Shown here: piece by piece, positions 45,434 through 57,174 of the stretch
Position numbering within the stretch: the first letter of the stretch is position 1
How the letters are laid out: the number at the start of each line of letters is the position of its first letter
Notes under the pieces: generated by a model
Told to the model about the DNA's origin: nothing
Seen by the model: the letters and a program-made list of their open reading frames with translations, nothing else
Databases searched by the model: none
Position numbers and translations under genes: made by a program
NCBI GenBank assembly: GCA_010405405.1
Contig: MU004239.1
Location: 372,001-436,000, forward strand
Direction of reading: 5' to 3'
Length of the DNA: 64,000 nucleotides
DNA from: Microthyrium microscopicum
Taxonomy: Eukaryota

Positions 45434-47392
45434 ATGGAAGCCCCATACCCCCAACAAGTGCAATTCAGCGCACCATTCTTCTACTATCACCCAGATCCAA
45501 ATTCGGACAACCGCCATCATGGACAGTTTACTCCACACCCACAGTCCACTCCTTACGAACAACAGCAACACATGCACGCGATGCCAGTCTCTCAATCTAT
45601 TCCAGTGTATCATCAGCAAGCGCTTGAACGGCCAGGTTCTGCTGGTCTGTATCACAATGTGTCCATGTACGCACAAGCATCACTTATCACACCAGCACAA
45701 TCACCAGTTCCTTCCCATAAACCACATATTGTTGTCCAACACGATTCTCCAATGCCATTGACAGTGGACACGGACTGCATTGTACCATCAACACCACCTC
45801 TGTCTACCTGTGGAACGGGTAGTGCAGTCAGCAGTCCCCCATCAACCTGTGATATTATGTCAACGCCAATCTATGGTTCATTCAGCTTGGACAATGGAAA
45901 GCCTGGTCATGATGAAGATGTGATGGCCGAGATCCTCGCCGGCGAGGATTCTTGGAGCTGCAACATGGACTCTCCAATGATGAAGCCTGGTAAGTAAACC
46001 ACACTCATGATCTGCTACTAGCTTGCAAGGCATTGAAATTAGATTGCACTTGTGCTGGATTGGCACAGGGCAACTGTTGAAATGCTTGGTTGCAAATGAA
46101 GCTTGGGCGATGCATGTTTCCTGGTGCAAATCTTGATCCCTGATGACAGCGGGCTAACTTCGGATATAGTTAGCGCCAATCTCGTGCAGGTCAACGTCAA
46201 GCTTGAGAGCTCTCCACCTCAAACTTCAGGACCGTACCGTGCAGCCTATCTACGCAGCATTGCTTCAGAGTGTCCTTCTCTCTCTCCTTCGCCCACGCCT
46301 ACTCCACAAACCACCCAGCACTCCGCTGAGTCGGCACAGGCTTTTTGCGATCCTCGCGCTCTTGCTGTTTCTGCTGTTTCTTCTCCCGTATTTCCCCAAC
46401 TACCTACTCTCTGCCCTGAGCCTGGTGTCGACGAAGCACGCCAGTGGCTTCTACGAGGTGATCTACTTTCCTCTCCTCAAACTGAGGATTTCAAAGTACT
46501 CACTCCAGAGGAAATTCTAACTCAATCCCATCTGCTTTCGCCAATCTACGAGCCACTCTTTGAGCTCGAAGCAGAAGACGATCTTTCTTCAATCACACAG
46601 TTCCGTCCATCGGATAACATCAACTTCGTCGGCCACAAGCGCCAGCGCACTGAACTCATATCTTTCAAGGACGAAGACTGGAGCTCCTCTGACTCATCAT
46701 CTGATTTCGACGACCTCTCCAGCCCTGGCCTCATCACTCCATGCGACTCTGATATCTTTGACATGTCAGACGTGCATGTCGCCAAGCGCTCGAAGCGCAA
46801 CTCGCGCCATGAGCTTGACGACTCGGAGTACAGCCATGCCAACGAAGGATCCTCCAACCAAGACTCTGGCAACTCTGCTCAATCTCCAAATGCTGATGAC
46901 GATATGCCCGGCAGCTCCGAAGATCCAGAAACTCCTGCTGGTACCACTGCCCCAGGCACCCCTGCTTCGCACCCAATCAGCCGCCGGGGACGCAAACAGT
47001 CATTGACCGAAGACCCTTCTAAGACATTTGCTTGCGATCTTTGCTCTAGAAAATTCAGACGACAAGAACATCTCAAGCGCCACTATCGCTCACTTCACAC
47101 TGGCGAGAAGCCATTTGAATGTAACGATTGCGGCAAGAAGTTCTCTCGCTCTGACAATCTTGCTCAGCACCAGCGCACGCACGGTTCTGGTAGCATTGTC
47201 ATGGGAGTACTAGATGCCCCAATGATGCTTGGTTACCCTCAAGATGCTGCTGTCATTGGCAGCCTCATCTTCGAAGCTACCACGTCTGCTACGCTATCAT
47301 ATCCAAGCAGTGCCTCTTCAGTGGCTACCATTTCCGATCAAGAGATGCACTCTGATTCGAAACTCAAGAAGCGCAAGCGCGGCGTTGAGTAA
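45434..47392 (+). CDS. seb1: Msn2-like C2H2 stress-response transcription factor (Seb1/MsnA family)
   Basis: N-terminal PFFYYHPDP...[45 protein letters not shown]...[14 protein letters not shown]; intron 45990-46169. Confidence 0.9.
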
Positions 47393-50300
47393 CTTGTTGG
47401 TCATTAGCATCAGCCAGTGGTTCTTCCTCATCAACCTAACGATCCTTCACGAAGTCTTATGTCTCATTATACGTCAGTCATGCCAAGGGAGGCACAGTCA
47501 CCCTTGCACACCATAGAGTTGGCTCGATCCATCAAAAGTTGTTTTTAAACCTCGTTACATCCCAGTGTACCCTGTATACTGTTTAGTCCTTCTATCCCTT
47601 TGCAGTCTTTGCACTTGGGAAGTGTGTTTTATACTTCATATCATAACCAAATCATGGCATTCGCTTGCACTGTTTGGTAACTTGTACTTTTATTTCTACT
47701 GTACCATTGGTTCATTGTCGACTTCGACCTTTTTTCTTCTCTTTCTTTGACATACTTGTCTTCCTTTCCGGCCTTCACACTTCGTGTTGGCCACTCCTGT
47801 TGGGACTGCAAAGGGATAGCTCGCGTGGAAAGTGTGCTGGCACATTTATTCAGCTGCATTCGCCTCGTAACAGCGATTAGTTTAAAGTCTAAACCTTAGC
47901 TATAGCATACGCTTCTCTGAAGCCAAAAACAATACAATCCCATTGATTAATCACTACTATCTCTTACACTGTGAAGCTTTGCGACTATCATGTGATGACG
48001 ACCACTACATCTTGATGAACTTGTCATTTCTCATCCATAGACTCTTGGTACAGAAGGCTGAAGTCTAATTACATCTCCACGCTCAATGGCCTAAACCACG
48101 GCGATGGGTATATCCGAGCCATTGGTTCCGCTCTTGATCTTTGATAAGGCTCACCATCAAAACAAAAGAAAACGGCTTACACGGGCACATTAAAAAGTAT
48201 TGGGACGCCTCATATTACGAAAACGCTAATCTCATATTCGGTACCATCTACCGTTGCTTTTGCACGCAAGATACTGTTTTCTGGCAGCCGCCGAATCCCG
48301 CTTTTACTTTAAGCACATCTTATATTTGTAAGGCTATATGCTTTTGACACAAGTCATTCTAAATTACTAGAGTAGTGCCCCAGTAGCGCCTAGTGAAAAA
48401 CAGCGAGCCCCATGAAGCCATTGATCATGCGATTTGGGTAAACGAAAAGACTATACGCTACTGATACTAGTAGTAGCAAATACTCTAACCCACGACACAC
48501 CCTCGCCCAATACTACCGCGCCTTTAAGGCTGATATTGCCTCGTGGCCTGCACGACTCACGCGAACTAGCTTTCCTTAGACTCCCCATAATGTTTCCTCT
48601 CGCCTTCCTGATAAACAGTTCCTGCAAACTCCAAGTAATTTCGCGCAAATGTTACTGTGCCAATAGCGCGTACAGAAACGAAATAAATTGCACACTTACA
48701 CGATTTGCAACCATTGGTATTGTTTCCTAGTAGCCTTGTAGATGAATTGTTTGTAAACGGTGCATACGTGCAATTGGATTAGATAGACATGGGTGGTTTT
48801 TGGCGTTTACAAACAACGCAATTAAATCATGGAAACGTAATTTATGCAACCCGCTGTCCAACTGCGCAGCTGTAGTAGAGTTTAGGCCGCTTTATAGGTT
48901 GTCTATTTGTTTCGTGTGTGGCGTTGAAATTCTCTAGTCATGGCTCACCATGCAGCGTAACTGGGATGGTTTGCGCGCAAAACTCTATTTTCACCTACAT
49001 ACCTGGTTCCGTAACTCCAGTCCCACTTCCTTCCTCCAAAGCCTAGGACCATGATCGATTAAATCCTGGCGATGCCATGTGTTGCGCGCAAGCAAGCAAG
49101 CATTCTCCGCATGGCGGTTTGATATAGCGCTGTATTTGCATCCTCTGAAAATGATGCGCGGCTGGGTTTCTTTCTGCGTGCGGGTTGGGACTTGGCGTAC
49201 GATCGCGGTGTGTGTTTGCGCGCGCGCGCGACTCATGATTTATGCGACGGATTTTGACGTGCTGTCACTGTCACTTGCTACAGCCTAGGTACCTAGCTGT
49301 CAAACTATCTGCCATTATTACGCAGCCACCCGCCGTCAGCGGATGGGTGTGGCGGCGTGTCTTCAGTGGCAGGTTGCATCGGCGGAGGCCTCACGAGTGT
49401 GGTGTGGGCGATTCATGGCGCCGCTGATGATGGTGGAGCTGTTGTTTCAGTGGTGATGCATGACGGGTTCGTGGTAATAGTCTGTGATCCTTATGCCATG
49501 TGGTTGGCGACGGTTGAGGCGTCTGGGGAAGCGTTGAGATTTGCATGGCGAGTTTGGGTGCTGGTAAGTGTAGTCTGCTGCAGAGTCGGAGTGGCGGGCC
49601 GTTGGGGTGATAGAATCTGGGACGTGAAACGGGTGACGCTTAGAGGAGATGGATGCGATAGGATTACTATAGGTGATGGGTACATATCTAAATCGTTTCA
49701 TCGCTGGGTTGATATCTTGTAAAGCTCGGGTGGTCAAGAGAAGGAAGGTCTAGGTATTGAATCGTGTCTTATGTCATTATATCTCTATTGAGTACGAGAT
49801 ATTCTTCCAATTGGTCATTATGGATCTCTCCTCTTGTTGTCATATCTTCTCTTCGTAAAACGGCAGAGCGTTCTCTGTATATTAAGCCGGCATGAAACTA
49901 TACTCAGTGAATCTAAAATGGGAAAGCAAACAGCTTCGCCTTGAAAGTTCATATTCAAGGCCGACCATTTTGTCATCGAATTGGTCGGTATTATGTCAAT
50001 ATCCCAGCCTTTCTCTTGATGCTCGACGACAGGAACGTTGGCAACAATCTTTGCACTAATTCATTCTGATCATGGCAGATGCTATTTGTTACCTAGGTAC
50101 AGTCGATAATGTCACATGTATGTATTGCGATTAACTCAGAGGATGAGAAAGAAGTGACATGCGGTAAGTGAACGCGCCCATCTGAAGTTATCCCTTTGAG
50201 CTTTTATATCAGCACTTGATTAGGCATAGGTACGTCTCATGTTCTCCCATGTCCTTTGATCAAGTGCCTTCGCACAGCAATAATCATCCATATTTCACTT

Positions 50301-50805: not shown

Positions 50806-51835
50806 ATGCCATTTACATTTCACTCGCCCGCCAGTCAACCGATTCGCTGTCCTTTGGGGCGTGAAATTCACGAGATACTGCACGAGTAAGTTGACGGACG
50901 CCCTGAAGCACATAAGAACAGCTTTGCTCATTTCAACAGGGAGTATTATGCAGGCGAAAATCTTTCTTTTAGCATACAATGTGCAGAAGGAGAAGTCGTG
51001 AAATGTCACAAGGTAGTCGCCCAGGCAGGTAGCAAAGTCATGCGCGAGTATCTACAAAGCTGTCAGGTGAGTAATTATAACTTGTGCACGAGAAGTATGC
51101 TGATTCTGAGTTAGTCTGATAGCTATGATCAGCCAGACTCGGAAAAGTATCCAGCCTTGTACGTAAAGGAGATCGTCCGATTCTGGTACACGGGATTCTA
51201 CGCCTACAGCGACATGGAGGCGAACCAAACTTTCAGTTTGCCATGGCCATTGCAGCTCCAAAGACTCAAGCATCATTTTGCGGTAAGCCCTGGCCTTTGT
51301 ATATTATCCTTGTGATGACTCTACTAATATTCAAACCGAGTAGATTGGCAAGTGCGCTTCGGCACTAGGGGTAGAAAAGCTACCTGGATTCGCCATAGGC
51401 TTCTTTGAACAAGATCTCTCAACAATGTCCTTCGACATGGACTTGACGAGCGAAATCGCAAAGTGGCTGGTCAGTCAGGGTGAGCCAGAACAACAATTTG
51501 TCTGGGTCTTCCTGGTCTGGTGGGCGAAGGCGGTCCACGATGCATACCCAATATTGACGAACTATGAGCATTTGTGGAACATCACTGTCGAATTTATCAA
51601 GACGTATCAATGTTTGGGATTTCAATTCCAGGGGAAAATGCTATTTGAGTTGATGGTGCAGTACGAAAAACATTTCAAGGCAAACCTGGAATGTCGATAC
51701 TGCAATTCTGATACTCCTATTGACAAACTCAAGCCGACTGATATCTCAACCCGCAACTTGGTTATCTGCAATTGTGAGCGGAAGTGCGAGCTGTTGTTGG
51801 GTGTCAATTGTCCTTCTCCACCACCAAGTGCCTGA
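50806..51835 (+). CDS. Divergent BTB/POZ-domain protein (4 exons; only the last exon is in the ORF track)
   Basis: Spliced FSIQCAEGEVVKCHKVVAQAGSKVMREYL...VKEIVRFWYTGFY; three GT-AG introns keep frame into ORF 51425-51835; true start uncertain. Confidence 0.7.
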
Positions 51836-52629
51836 TCTCCTATCAGGCTGAGCGATTGGTCTTTGAATGTGGTACTCCTGTTTTGCTTCGATGGTGTCTT
51901 ATTTTCCTTCAATACATCATAGCAGGCTAGCAAGCTATCCAATCTTATGATTTTGTCCGATATTTCGCTTCCCTAGTCGTGCTCTGTGACTTTGACATAG
52001 ATACGAAAAAAGTACTGTCATTCGAATGTGGTAAAATATGGCCTGTTTGTATAATGTCCACCAACCAAATGGTCTGAGAGGCTTGGTTCTACTGGTAATG
52101 TGATCGTACGTTTTAACAAGTTAAATCGTACATATTTTGGTGAATTCATTGTATTCTCGCTGAACAACTCAACAGTGTTTATATCTATACTGACGGACGT
52201 CTATTACTATTAGGATCAGCATTTCTAACTTACAACACACACGATAAATATATCAATCAGAGTCGTATCGTTTATATACAAATCAGCAAGGTCTCGTCCC
52301 CATAGTTCAGAAGAGAACACAAATCGTGATATAAATCAACTGCTAGTTGCTGGGTCCGCCAAGTTGCGCCGCCGTACCTCACTTTTATACGTATGGCTTT
52401 ACTAGGCCACCAATCTGTCTTGCCAGTAAGACTGGGAATCCTCCTAACAAAAAAGATAATATCATTAGCCGTGTTCTGAAACAGCCAAACTGGTGACATC
52501 AAAACGATCTCGCCAGCCTGCGTAAAAATAATGGAGCTTGAAGGTTTCAGCATTGTACTTGTAATCTTCATATAGCGCTCCCTTACTATGCAGGTAGTCC
52601 AGCGGCAGAATTTGAACAGCACATATGAT

Positions 52630-52637
52630 AAAAAAAA
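52630..52637 (-). terminator. RNA polymerase III oligo(dT) terminator of the tRNA gene
   Basis: T8 run on the minus strand 16 nt after the discriminator base. Confidence 0.7.
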
Positions 52638-52653
52638 TCGTATCACGTTGAAG

Positions 52654-52800
52654 GGGCTTTTCCGGGATTTGAACCCGGGACCTCACACAATTCTGTTCAA
52701 CAGAGGGGGCAATAACCCGAAGCATGAATCATACCACTAGACTCAAAGGGAGTTAGAAAAAGTGGTTGAAATTGAAAGTAATTTACTTACCCAAAAAGCC
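52654..52800 (-). tRNA. tRNA-Pro(CGG) interrupted by a spliceosomal-type intron (52742-52790) and a canonical tRNA intron (52690-52715)
   Basis: Joined exons read GGCTTTT TG GTCTAGTGGTATGAT T CATGC TT CGG G/T GTGTG AGGTC CCGGG TTCAAAT CCCGG AAAAGCC C: 7/7 acceptor stem, Pro-type D arm, intact B box, C73. Confidence 0.85.
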
Positions 52801-53226
52801 GGCAAGTTAGCTCGAAAATGCTTCATTTTTGTATATAACCCACATGATAAATGTAAATTTTCGCCACACTTTTCTCGCACTCAATTCACACATTATCTTT
52901 CCACATGCACTTTTTTTACTTTCATGTTACACAAAAGTCAAAATTCTCCCTTCTTGCTTGATTTGAATCAACAATAGAGATATGATGCTGTTGAACTCAC
53001 TTGCTACATGTTGACTGTTGACACACCCGCCTTGGCCAGGAGCCCTTCTCGAAGGGGTGATAAACGCAAGCAAGGACCGCTGTAAATGTACGACTTAGTC
53101 ACTGATGATAACAAGAGGGAATCAGTCTGACTCTGGAGTCGTTCTTGGTTCACTGAGATGTTTTCATGTTATGGTTAAGTACAAGATGTATGTCTATAAT
53201 ATTGTCCACACATTCGCATTCATCCA

Positions 53227-55168
53227 TCAGGAGGCAAACCGGAAGTCGAGCCTCTTGTTACCCTTATCAGTAGTAGTATTCAGGTAATGCAATCTCTGCT
53301 CCTTGCTCATACTGTTCCATCGTTTATCACGAACATTATTTCGCCACTCGTAGTAGGCTTTGGATGCAACAAAGAGGCAAAGATTCCAGGCGACTATACC
53401 CAGAAGAACCTTGTTACCTTTGTAGTAATAAGGCTTGTCATCAGTACGGTATATCTGGGAGCTGATGATATTGGATGTCTGCACCGTCATGTTGTATAAT
53501 GACGACGCCACTGTGCGGGTGCGTACTGTGCCGGCGTTGCGCGAAGCAAGTGCAACAAGCACAGCGTGAGCATAAGGATAACCAATGATGAGCGTACTAA
53601 TCACCCATTTTGCCCAGTTGGAGCCTGGGAACGTTTTGGGTAAGACTTCGAGGGCGATAAGCAGTGGTAGAACCCATATTTGCGAAATGATGCCGATGAG
53701 CATACGCTGATTAACCTTTTCAGAGAACCAAGTCCAAAAAAGTAGCTGGATAATGAATAGAACGTAAGCAGGAATGGTTAGGAGGTTGGTTTCAAAGGTG
53801 CTGAAACCGAGAGCCTTGCATGTGAGCGTAATGTAAGTCGTCTCTGGTGTCATTGGGATGGTCCAAGTAAGTCCAAGTAGATATATGGGCCCTGGAGTTT
53901 GTTAGTGTGAGGTCAAAAGAAGTCCAAGAAACGTTGCTGCGTTCATGTGATGAGGCTAAGAAATGTTCTTAGAAAGGGGAAGCTTACACATATCGAAATC
54001 AGTGAACGAATCCCACAAAGCACGGAAATTCAGGCCTTGTCGATTATGCATCGTTGCTTTGCCAGGATCGTCCTTCAGAATGCGAGTCACAAGGATGTAT
54101 TCCTCTCGTTCTGTGAACCAGCCATGCTCGGGTCGGAGGGCTCCTTTGATGCCGTGTCGACTCGTTTGAGTCGGTGACGCTGGAAGGTACAGCCAGGTCA
54201 AGATGCCAATAAGTGCCGTTATAGAACCCTCGATAGCAAACACATATCTCCAACCAGCTTTTAGAGCCGTGTCTGGTCCGCGAATGTGTAAAAGTCCAAA
54301 GGCCAGAAAAGCGCCAATGATCGATGTTCCTTGATACGCCGTCCAGAACCAAGATAGACGCTTGGGTAATTCAGCGTTTTTGTAGTAGTATGACAGATAT
54401 AGAATGACATCCGGAATGAAGCCGCCTTCCATCAAGCCGAGTAAAAAGCGGGTAATGTAAAACGTTGTGCGGCCAGTGATGCGAGCTTGACTGGCAGCAA
54501 CAATACTCCATGCTAACATCTGGATAGGTATCCAGACATCCGGACCAACTTTCTTGCTAATAAGCTGAGATGGTAGTTCTGCAAATAAAAATGCGCAATA
54601 GAAGATAGTCATTCCATTGTTGTAGTCGTTTGTCGTCATCTTCAAGTCCGCTGCATAGAGTCAGTATATATGAACAATGGTCGAGGCAGTACTTACTCAG
54701 TAAAGTGTCGGACAGAGCTTGAGTGATGTTACCGCGATCAAGCTGGAGTGCAAAGAACATTATACAAGCTGGCAAAGCAATTCGCCAATCAAGCTTCAAA
54801 ACTGTTAGTGTAAGATCCCTCGCGAATGCGAAAGCACTTACAGTTCGAACCAGTTTCCTTTCCTCTTCGTCAGTCCAAGTCATGGAAGGATCGAATCGAT
54901 GAGCGCCTTCATAACCTTCAGTTGGTTTGTAGATATCTTTCGCTTCTTCAGTCTCATAGAGACCGTGCGAGTCTTCACTGGCAGTAAGACTTTCTGAGCT
55001 GGTCGTTGATTTTGACGTTTTTGGATATCCAGAGTCTACAGAAACAAATGCCTGATCTTTCCCTCCCAGCTTCAACCAAGCGCGCCTCTTCACTGGTTGA
55101 TTGTCAACGGCTGGGAACACCTTCTCGTCCACATCCTTGATGTCCGCAGAATGCGATCCCTTGGACAT
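53227..55168 (-). CDS. MFS transporter, allantoate permease (ACS/Dal5) family
   Basis: KLDWRIALPACIMFFALQLDRGNI, ELPSQLISKKVGPDVWIP, RFLLGLMEGGFIPD, GWRYVFAIEG, C-terminal GNKRLDFRFA; three introns. Confidence 0.92.
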
Positions 55169-57174
55169 GGTGATAACAATTGGATCAACAATAACACAAT
55201 AGTGACTTGTTTTCAAGGCAGTATTGAGGGAGATATCCCCCTACATATATGGCTACCAGGTTTTACGAAGTTCCCCAAAAGAACATGCATCGCTAAGGCT
55301 CGGGAATACTTTCGAAGCGTACTATTGGTCCCGGACTTGGGGTTGACGCGTGCTCTCTGCAAAATCTGGAATCATTGCGAATCCGAAGGCTTTAATGTCG
55401 TGATATAAAATCAGATCATCGCCAAGGGCAATGATGATCAAGCATTGGCTCTTGTCAAGTTGGGGGAACATGCTCGCAGCTTCAACGCTTCTTGATGCAA
55501 CCAAGTAGGCGGGTCGTCTGCCAGAAAGGCGGCCGAATAAGAGCTAGGACACATCTTTAGGCCAGTATCGTGCGAGGCGGCTTATTTCTCATAACGAGGC
55601 TGTATGAGGTGACAAGTCGTCAAGTTGTCGCTTGGAGAAGGAGGTTAGCTTGGTTTGTTCCAGACACTGAACCAGTCAAAGGCCGATATTCACGATTTCA
55701 AGATAAAAAAAACTGGAGATTGTCAGCGATTCGGTTGATAAATAGCTTTATTATTGTCAAACGGTGCAGTATTTGCGTGGGTGAAATCAACATAATAATG
55801 TACTCATCCAGGGAATTGATTGCGTGCTTGAGCCGTCAGGACTCCGAATTGTTTTACTTCTCGGCTCGACTCGACAGCATTCAACGCTGAAGTATTCTAC
55901 TGTTAGCTGAATTACATATAACTGAGCCTGATGGAGATAGATATCAGATCCAATAGACATGTAACTTCCAGATATGGGTTGATGTGGCTCTCATCTTGAA
56001 AGTCATGCCGTTAACCATAATGTCGGGAATATGAGAACAATGCCTGGCATTTTGCATGACAGTGTCGATTTCAATGAATGCGCCTCTAACACGTGCGAGA
56101 CGATTATGCTCTTGCCGCGAACTGACAAAGCAACTGGCAAAACAGCTGGCATACTTCCGTTAATGGCGATAGCTGGCACCAGCTGTTCTGACATGATGGT
56201 TCTTCATGTTCGATCAAAGTTGGTCAACCATTAAGCTATAAGCGCCCTATATGGCATATAAAGCTTTCCATGCCAACGCGCAGTAGGAGGTAAGTAGCAT
56301 TGTTGACGGGAGTAAGCCGGTTATTTCGATCACCTCTGAACTGGTTACCTTGGATGCGATCATGTGGCTGATTGAGTTGAATCGAAGGCTCGGGAAGCCT
56401 CCAGGTATACAGAAGCAGGATTCCAGTCCCATGGTCTCGGAAAACACGATATACCAAACTAGAACGACGCTGCTCAAAGTTTATGAGGGCCGTGCCGCAG
56501 TCTCGACTTGCCAGATGACAGCGAAGCATTTGTAGAAACCAACAGCTTGGGAGCCGGTCCGCATAGCTTAATAGCTTTAAGCTCATAACTTCGAGTACAG
56601 TAAAGTGGTTGTTGAGATCTCGTCATGGCCTGATTGGCGAAGCTTGACTGTTGTGTTGGCAATTCATCGGCTGTAGACAGTGTAGACCAAGTAGTACCTC
56701 GCAGATTCTCAGCGCTTTCAAGATTCTCTACATTGCATCTGAAGATCATAGGCAAACTGTAATGCTTCAAAGCTAATGGAACCAGCAGTGTGGTCGAGAA
56801 TGATGATGGAGCTTTCCAATGCATCTCGATTCAAATCAGAATCTGCGCGGGAGGTCAATTCAAGTAAGAGTGGCGCAGCATTATTATGCACCGCCACGTT
56901 TGCCTCTGCCTTAACGTCGAATGATTTCAACCTGTAAATCTTCGTCATCCTAGGACGGGCATACCGAACCACATGGAACCAGGGACATGTTTGCATTAAG
57001 CAGGATCTCTGTATTTAATTTTATCACGGAGAAGCCTTCAAGACACTGACAACACACAGTGGCCTTGTGATACTCCTCAGTTAGCCTCAAGGACAACTGC
57101 AGGACTGATGGGCAAACAAGAGCTAGGATAATTGATGCAGCGCGGCTCAGATCTGACGGTTCTAACAACATGTC

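Follow-up and report, generated by a model that had tools for sequence, protein, structure and literature searches.

The window, by which we mean the whole 64,000-nt stretch of DNA analyzed, probably carries a nuclear tRNA-Pro(CGG) gene of an ascomycete, one of a family of proline tRNA genes in which a U2-type GT-AG intron separates tRNA positions 10 and 11, and this copy would reach mature tRNA by an RNA polymerase III (Pol III) route. Judging from the genes themselves, it is quite likely that the family yields working tRNA through removal of the insert by the spliceosome. The fungal affiliation agrees with a neighboring protein, whose protein clusters are mostly from Ascomycota and whose best named relatives, sharing 40-46% identity, are Dothideomycetes plus one entry each from Xylona, Sarea, and Acarospora; the best match of all reaches 53%. 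These values place the window in a lineage of Pezizomycotina that has been little sampled.

Architecture of the tRNA-Pro(CGG) gene

The gene lies on the minus strand at 52800-52654 and has two interruptions, each of a different kind. Its parts and flanking elements are as follows.

52832..52837, minus strand: TATA-like element TATATA, 32-37 nt 5' of exon 1; putative promoter element
52791..52800, minus strand: exon 1, GGCTTTTTGG, tRNA positions 1-10 (GGCTTTT acceptor strand, U8, G9, G10)
52742..52790, minus strand: 49-nt spliceosome-type insert between tRNA positions 10 and 11
52716..52741, minus strand: exon 2, tRNA positions 11-37 (D arm, 5' anticodon stem, anticodon CGG, G37), from the ARAGORN cloverleaf
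52690..52715, minus strand: canonical endonuclease-type intron of 26 nt after position 37, from ARAGORN
52654..52689, minus strand: exon 3, tRNA positions 38-73 (3' anticodon stem, variable loop, T arm, AAAAGCC, discriminator C)
52675-52665, minus strand: B box, GGTTCAAATCC, in the T arm; the sole B-box match in the 64-kb window
52630..52637, minus strand: T8 run resembling a Pol III terminator, 16-17 nt 3' of the gene

A 31-nt leader separates the TATATA element from exon 1. The insert opens with GTAAGT and closes with GAG; between them, CTAAC at 52756-52752 places the branch A 11 nt short of the 3' end. One T5 run lies within exon 1 and a second, at 52761-52757, within the insert. The splice cut can slide by one base (G/GT..AG versus GG/T..A G), and one of the two placements fits GT-AG.

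Read contiguously, the locus has TCCCTTT as its 5' acceptor strand and G at position 8; default ARAGORN reports no tRNA in the unspliced 64-kb window, and Rfam at its gathering threshold gives no match in the window. When the 49 nt are deleted in silico, ARAGORN returns a tRNA-Pro(cgg) with a 7/7 acceptor stem (GGCTTTT/AAAAGCC), U8, and a Pro-type D arm. The spliced form is 72 nt long when mature and has U8, G18 G19, U33, an NGG anticodon, G37, a T-loop TTC, and discriminator C, all of which we take to be identity elements of tRNA-Pro; its anticodon stem contains two G-U pairs in the ARAGORN cloverleaf. The sequence-only reading from which this analysis started had given the same coordinates, letters, and insert signals, all found again on rereading the sequence. 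Its assertions that the contiguous tRNA is broken and that removal of the insert repairs it agree with the comparison of spliced and genomic sequence above. It also expected standard tRNA finders to call a pseudogene, and the default searches above do miss the gene. As an account of gene structure that reading was accurate for the 49-nt intron and overlooked the canonical 26-nt intron and the two internal T5 runs.

Run in intron mode on the unspliced sequence, ARAGORN proposed a tRNA-Arg(cct) with a 62-nt intron at the same locus and, elsewhere in the window, a tRNA-Ile with a 303-nt intron at 47049-47446, within a zinc-finger ORF; both were rejected as spurious. In this mode the program accepts too much (with unconstrained deletions, each locus produced spurious calls by the dozen), and for that reason the case made here rests on the exact-complement and covariation tests described below and not on ARAGORN alone.

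Placement of exon 1 and tests against chance

Exon 1 was placed by base pairing, so that its location is independent of the splice signals. The 200 nt upstream of the window gene contain a single perfect 7-mer complement of the 3' acceptor strand, which is exon 1, and the same 7-mer turned up in 27 of 2000 shuffles of those 200 nt with the TGG and GT context still unrequired. Placement and covariation were evaluated over 19 genes, namely the window gene and 18 metagenome loci introduced in the next section; several of these loci are near-identical (L024/36/42, L010/22, L025/37, and L018/32), and the set corresponds to about 8 to 13 independent genes, not 19. For each of the 19, the 200 nt upstream contain exactly one perfect complement of the 3' acceptor strand, and each time TGG and then GT come directly after it. 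The complement alone arose by chance in 7-36 of 2000 shuffles, depending on the locus.

The window was also treated as a whole by removing, on both strands, every GT..AG stretch of 30-130 nt that contains a branch-like motif. From these 17,209 candidates a tRNA across the junction was obtained twice, both times at the tRNA-Pro locus. It is extremely improbable that the structure is a product of chance or artefact, that is, a 5'-truncated tRNA pseudogene lying behind intron-like sequence, or an assembly error. The permissiveness of intron-mode tRNA finders would invite such a product, but the two frequencies just given for the window speak against it, as does the recurrence of the same architecture, with covarying acceptor stems, in 18 independently assembled metagenome contigs.

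Related tRNA-Pro loci in metagenomes

A single scan of a metagenome collection, in which the D-arm motif had to follow [A/C/G]AG, gave 50 loci; under this pattern position 8 is not T, as it should be where an intron ends. In 18 of them, and only once GT..AG inserts are removed, a tRNA-Pro emerges whose first base is that of a 10-nt exon 1. All 18 have a 50-57-nt GT-AG insert at the same 10/11 site, and all 18 also have a canonical intron, of 17-38 nt, at the same place as in the window gene. The isoacceptors are AGG in 16 loci, TGG in one, and CGG in one. A 19th locus, L008, has the same exon 1 and 10/11 insert, its contig ending 115 nt into the body. A plain tRNA was looked for in the 400-nt flanks of the 19 metagenome loci and none was found. 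The sequence-only reading had named a lack of conserved splice signals in relatives as the outcome that would count against it, and had suggested a search for other tRNAs rescued by removing a GT-AG intron; these 18 genes, with CTAAC, CTGAC, or CTAAT as branch motif, are the opposite of the first and the yield of the second.

One or two extra GT-AG inserts occur in the anticodon or T arm of 12 of the 18 loci and of L008, at the following positions.

30/31: L008
34/35 (within the anticodon): L002, L014, L018, L032, L050, L004
53/54: L043
54/55: L004
55/56: L040
58/59: L010, L022, L025, L037

These six positions besides 10/11 suggest that tRNA-Pro genes have gained GT-AG introns repeatedly.

The other 31 loci, which gave no tRNA-Pro, comprise 12 that are GC-rich, four that are tRNA-like but truncated (L007, L019, L021, and L031), and 15 that seem unrelated. 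In each GC-rich locus, a stretch of 21 nt bounded by AG and GT matches tRNA-Pro positions 11-31 exactly, and an ORF starts on the opposite strand within about 20 nt of the match. Interpretation of these stretches as micro-exons was dropped in view of that adjacent opposite-strand ORF start. Our guess is that they are primer-binding sites of retroelements that would use a 5' half of tRNA-Pro; a Pfam search with two of the ORFs gave no match. These 12 loci were left out of all counts.

Covariation across the insert

The 19 genes collapse into seven distinct mature sequences with five different acceptor stems. Across the seven sequences all 49 of 49 acceptor cells are Watson-Crick, and at five of the seven acceptor pairs both partners have changed. 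With all stems of the cloverleaf taken together, compensatory change is seen at 9 of 21 pairs and pairing holds in 140 of 147 cells; the seven exceptions are one T:T, the same in every sequence, at the D-stem base. The insert parts the two strands of the acceptor helix, and the helix is kept all the same, which implies that the insert must leave the RNA.

The window gene can be compared directly with L043, the other CGG gene. The two differ by double changes at acceptor pairs 4, 6, and 7 and also at anticodon-stem pairs 27:43 and 28:42, and these compensatory changes indicate that selection for pairing went on after the genes diverged. After removal of the insert the stems of the window gene are intact, and its B box, TATA-like element, and T8 run are present; the internal T5 runs are its sole pseudogene-like trait.

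Those T5 runs, found inside no other gene of the 19, are one reason to ask whether the window copy might be decaying or silent within an intron-bearing family that is otherwise real. Its T-rich insert is unlike the others and the only one with a GAG 3' end; there are also the two G-U pairs in its anticodon stem, and its T loop reads TTCAAAT versus TTCGA in the relatives. We nevertheless regard silence as quite unlikely for a copy in which all seven acceptor pairs are Watson-Crick, whose differences from L043 fall on both sides of its pairs, and whose splice signals and B box are unimpaired, as are its TATA-like element and T8 terminator. We retain an expressed, intron-bearing gene as the preferred reading of the window copy.

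Insert signals and the machinery of removal

The 10/11 and extra inserts amount to 27 distinct sequences of 49-60 nt. They start as follows.

GTAAGT: 10 inserts
GTAAGA: 3 inserts
GTAAGC: 3 inserts
GTACGT: 3 inserts
GTGAGT: 2 inserts
GTTAGT: 2 inserts
GTAAAA: 2 inserts
GTAGGA: 1 insert
GTATGT: 1 insert

Thus 25 of the 27 fit GTNNGN, the other two being those with GTAAAA. The branch motif is CTAAC in 21, CTGAC in three, CTAAT in two, and TTAAT in one, and in all but one of the 27 it precedes the 3' end by 10-12 nt. Nineteen inserts terminate in CAG, four in AAG, three in TAG, and one (that of the window gene) in GAG; the AG was imposed on the metagenome 10/11 inserts by the search pattern. To enter the candidate list, any insert, the 13 distinct further ones among them, likewise had to have GT, AG, and a branch-like motif. 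The richer consensus of GTAAGT, CTAAC, and fixed spacing was not imposed by the search, and the tRNA sequence gives an independent placement of the insert borders that is good to one base.

A standard for comparison is provided by the neighboring major-facilitator transporter gene, which ends 430 nt upstream of the tRNA. One transcriptome run over 51800-55400 skips three introns of this gene, situated 1-2 kb away; its contigs fall outside 51921-52888, the interval with the tRNA locus. These RNA-confirmed introns are 46, 48, and 96 nt long and begin with GTAAGT or GTAAGC, and in each a CTAAC or CTGAC precedes the AG by 10-11 nt. On its letters the 49-nt insert is indistinguishable from them in size and grammar, in line with the initial claim that it resembles the mRNA introns of this genome.

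Introns with a bulge-helix-bulge are recognized through a 4-bp central helix. Such a helix was found in 0 of 32 inserts tested, the best reaching two of four pairs and the window insert one of four. The eukaryotic tRNA endonuclease measures from the folded mature domain (PMC10485636), which cannot form with the insert present, and the enzyme would therefore be without its ruler at 10/11. Ectopic and multiple tRNA introns cut at a bulge-helix-bulge are known from a eukaryotic nucleus, that of Cyanidioschyzon merolae, as well as from archaea (PMC3728597, PMC3978253), and provide the model for a nonspliceosomal route in which the tRNA splicing endonuclease would excise the insert at an ectopic site. 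Such a route is very improbable here, given the lack of the central helix and the dependence of the enzyme on a domain that the insert disrupts; nor would a bulge-helix-bulge give any cause for diverged inserts to keep GT, CTAAC at 10-12 nt, and AG. Of the machineries known, the spliceosome alone suits the inserts as we read them, and the conserved position, the covariation, and the missing bulge-helix-bulge together support the spliceosome-dependent maturation put forward in the sequence-only reading.

Promoter, terminator, and polymerase

Several features associate the tRNA-Pro units with Pol III. A T5-T10 run occurs no more than 30 nt downstream of all 19 genes, compared with 535 of 15,206 control windows (3.5%). 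Thirteen of the 19 have a TATA-like motif between 20 and 60 nt 5' of exon 1, compared with 210 of 15,206 control windows, and the genes without the strict motif have looser variants upstream. T4 runs are absent from 15 of the 19 transcription units. A and C predominate in the inserts, T making up 24.5%, and T3+ runs occur in six of 27 as against a shuffle mean of 10.8 (P ~0.02); depletion beyond composition is modest for these T3+ runs and not significant for T4+ and T5+ runs. The units are probably transcribed by Pol III, a reading favored by the downstream T runs, the TATA-like motifs, the scarcity of internal T4, and the T-poor inserts, which are what one would expect of units in which Pol III has to be kept from stopping prematurely.

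The window gene departs from this pattern, being the only one of the 19 with T5 runs inside the unit (in exon 1 and in the insert, the latter with 41% T). T5 is the apparent terminator of four relatives (L015, L043, L025, and L040), so that Pol III might stop early in the window copy. Either termination here needs more than T5 (the gene's own terminator is T8), or Pol II reads this copy, or the copy is in the course of falling silent.

The internal promoter is unusual as well, assuming what we take to be the A-box and B-box consensus sequences. The A box is split by the 10/11 insert in every gene, and the B box is split by a second insert in seven relatives, an arrangement that sits uneasily with a standard Pol III promoter driven by TFIIIC. 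In the window gene the last three bases of the insert and the start of exon 2 together read as a near A box at 52744-52734, some 60 nt away from where exon 1 begins. Several relatives have the conserved motif CCATCAA 14-26 nt upstream of exon 1 and about 22-30 nt after the TATA-like element; the motif resembles what is presumably a fungal start-site consensus.

These peculiarities raise the alternative of a Pol II precursor, either a noncoding transcript of its own or read-through, from which the spliceosome would remove the insert before RNase P and RNase Z excise the tRNA. Such a precursor would escape the two T5 runs that would impede Pol III in the window unit, would have no need of the A box that is split in all genes or the B box that is split in seven, and would suit the spacing of CCATCAA and the TATA-like element in several relatives. 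The spliceosome, moreover, normally works on Pol II transcripts (PMC12530127). We consider this alternative unlikely, in that T5-T10 directly after 19 of 19 genes and the near-absence of T4 inside the relatives are hallmarks of Pol III. In the transcriptome, the contigs of the upstream gene stop near 53148, apart from a piece of low depth that reaches 52902, and none bridges to the tRNA. Pol III transcripts can, furthermore, be spliced, with the U6 RNA of Schizosaccharomyces pombe as precedent (PMC5855946). The preferred reading remains a Pol III unit.

Proposed maturation pathway

We read architecture, conservation, and covariation from the sequence and infer from them every RNA step and the identity of the polymerase. 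The precursor would begin a few bases 5' of exon 1, at a start set by the TATA-like element and the internal B box, would extend from exon 1 through the 49-nt insert and the body with its canonical intron, and would stop at T8, probably as a product of Pol III. The spliceosome would then read GUAAGU, CUAAC, and AG, release the 49 nt as a lariat, and join G10 to U11, and only after this removal would the acceptor and D stems be able to form. The tRNA endonuclease and ligase would next take out the 26-nt anticodon-loop intron, and RNase P, RNase Z, and CCA addition would complete the tRNA-Pro.

Extended to its limit, the proposal would be that a whole ascomycete lineage makes its proline tRNAs (AGG, TGG, and CGG) from Pol III genes with one to three spliceosomal introns in addition to the endonuclease-type intron. 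We advance this extension tentatively, as a possibility with somewhat less than an even chance. If it is true, the spliceosome would be an obligatory tRNA-maturation enzyme in that lineage, the supply of tRNA-Pro would be tied to splicing capacity, and tRNA genes would be recurrent targets of spliceosomal intron gain, with seven positions seen.

Spliceosomal introns in stable RNA genes are already known, and tRNA would be a new host, represented by a family and not by a single gene. The available text of three reviews has nuclear tRNA introns removed only by a protein endonuclease and ligase, and treats the three eukaryotic intron types as unrelated, each with its own class of transcripts (PMC10485636, PMC12530127, PMC10275265). 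The literature searched, which included few subscription journals so that an older report is possible, held no account of a spliceosomal intron in a nuclear tRNA gene, which matches the statement in the initial reading that none had been described. If the proposal for the family is true, tRNA joins a short list of stable RNAs with spliceosomal introns, and the genes offer a natural case of the spliceosome acting on transcripts that seem to be made by Pol III. Repeated intron gain in an RNA of 72 nt would bear on how introns arise. There would also be an annotation blind spot, because tRNAscan-type tools and Rfam would show such proline tRNA genes as absent or as pseudogenes; tRNAscan-SE 2.0, in the available part of its description, looks for noncanonical introns in archaea only (PMC8450103).

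Comparison with known intron systems

The available portion of a 2025 article describes the three eukaryotic intron types as unrelated and assigns spliceosomal introns to Pol II transcripts (PMC12530127); the spliceosome figures only as a contrast in the accessible sections of a 2023 tRNA review (PMC10275265). Noncoding hosts of spliceosomal introns nonetheless include the U6, U2, U5, and U1 snRNAs and rRNA genes, as listed in a 2018 review of U6 (PMC5855946).

The closest parallel is fungal U6. Introns of mRNA type occur in the Pol III-transcribed U6 genes of S. pombe and other fungi (PMC5855946, with Tani & Ohshima 1989, 1991; Frendewey et al. 1990; and Canzler et al. 2016 as the sources named there). 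Like these, the tRNA-Pro introns are short GT-AG introns in genes for a small stable RNA that end in a T run and have internal Pol III boxes; the intron sits among promoter elements, and the trait is patchy and specific to a fungal lineage. Unlike U6, the tRNA host is no component of the spliceosome, and reverse splicing at the active site therefore fails as an origin. The tRNA-Pro genes differ further in having up to three such introns per gene together with an endonuclease-type intron, and splicing in them is deduced from sequence.

Spliceosomal introns are also found in ascomycete nuclear rDNA, mostly of lichen-forming species (Bhattacharya et al. 2000 in PMC5855946; PMC8527467). The tRNA-Pro introns share with these the GT-AG type, a host gene that is not transcribed by Pol II and encodes a structural RNA of translation, and a setting in Pezizomycotina. 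The host RNA is a different one, and the rDNA genes are transcribed by Pol I, whereas the tRNA-Pro units look like Pol III genes.

Canonical eukaryotic tRNA introns lie at 37/38 and are removed by the TSEN endonuclease and a ligase (PMC10485636, PMC10275265). The window gene has one of these, the 26 nt at 52715-52690, and its 49-nt insert is of another kind, standing at 10/11 in the mature domain with spliceosomal signals and no bulge-helix-bulge. In their noncanonical positions, frequent multiplicity, and invisibility to standard finders, the inserts recall the ectopic tRNA introns of C. merolae and archaea (PMC3728597, PMC3978253). The borders of those introns are defined by a bulge-helix-bulge, whereas the tRNA-Pro inserts have none and are marked instead by GT, CTAAC, and AG.

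Intron Content and Upstream Sequence of Interrupted tRNA-Pro Genes

Eight of the metagenome loci carrying interrupted tRNA-Pro genes (L002, L003, L014, L015, L018, L032, L033, and L050) encode an identical 72-nt mature tRNA-Pro(AGG) and vary in the introns they carry. In three, a single GT-AG insert accompanies a canonical (endonuclease-type) intron of 32–38 nt; the remaining five have two GT-AG inserts and a canonical intron of 17 nt. Introns were therefore gained or lost while the tRNA itself stayed unchanged.

Several interrupted tRNA-Pro genes also share a conserved CCATCA(A/G) motif between a TATA-like element and exon 1 (tRNA positions 1–10), 14–26 nt 5' of the latter, which could be a start site or promoter element. 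In the L002 group, the entire 45 nt 5' of exon 1 are conserved, with divergence farther out. The motif is absent from the tRNA-Pro gene of the window. Its carriers are

L002, L003, L004, L008, L014, L015, L018, L032, L033, L043, L050

Other Loci with tRNA-Pro Sequence

The scan for the tRNA-Pro D-arm motif that yielded these loci also returned other kinds of sequence. One is a GC-rich group, described around the pattern match:

L001, L005, L016, L020, L026, L027, L034, L038, L039, L041, L046, L047 (n = 12)

All 12 contain a 21-nt stretch that matches tRNA-Pro positions 11–31 exactly, flanked by AG and GT, and an open reading frame (ORF) on the opposite strand starting within about 20 nt beyond it; the two ORFs tested had no Pfam match. 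These loci may be primer-binding sites for retroelements that employ a 5' half of tRNA-Pro. Another kind comprises three AT-rich, mutually identical loci (L019, L021, and L031), in which a 5'-truncated tRNA-Pro(TGG)-like sequence begins at position 11 after a long T run. Exon 1 was not found in these three, and the tRNA-like sequence is probably a pseudogene from a different kind of organism.

Other Features of the Window

53148–55400, minus strand, major-facilitator transporter gene with three introns, from transcriptome contigs
47049–47446, minus strand, tRNA-Ile(gat) call with a 303-nt intron, from ARAGORN intron mode

Transcriptome contigs confirm the transporter introns (53891–53986, 54651–54696, and 54794–54841) and place the transcript end at approximately 53148, a low-depth piece extending to 52902. 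The tRNA-Ile(gat) call lies inside a C2H2 zinc-finger ORF and is almost certainly spurious, a product of the permissive intron mode.

T-Arm Inserts and the B Box

In five interrupted tRNA-Pro genes, a further GT-AG insert in the T arm, located in the T-loop (L010, L022, L025, and L037) or T-stem (L043), starts with GT(G/A)AGTTC(G/A)A, so that the 5' splice site and the bases following it re-create a B-box-like GTTCGA or GTTCAA beside the split T arm. The B-box-like insert starts of all five recall Schizosaccharomyces pombe U6, in which the B box lies within the intron.
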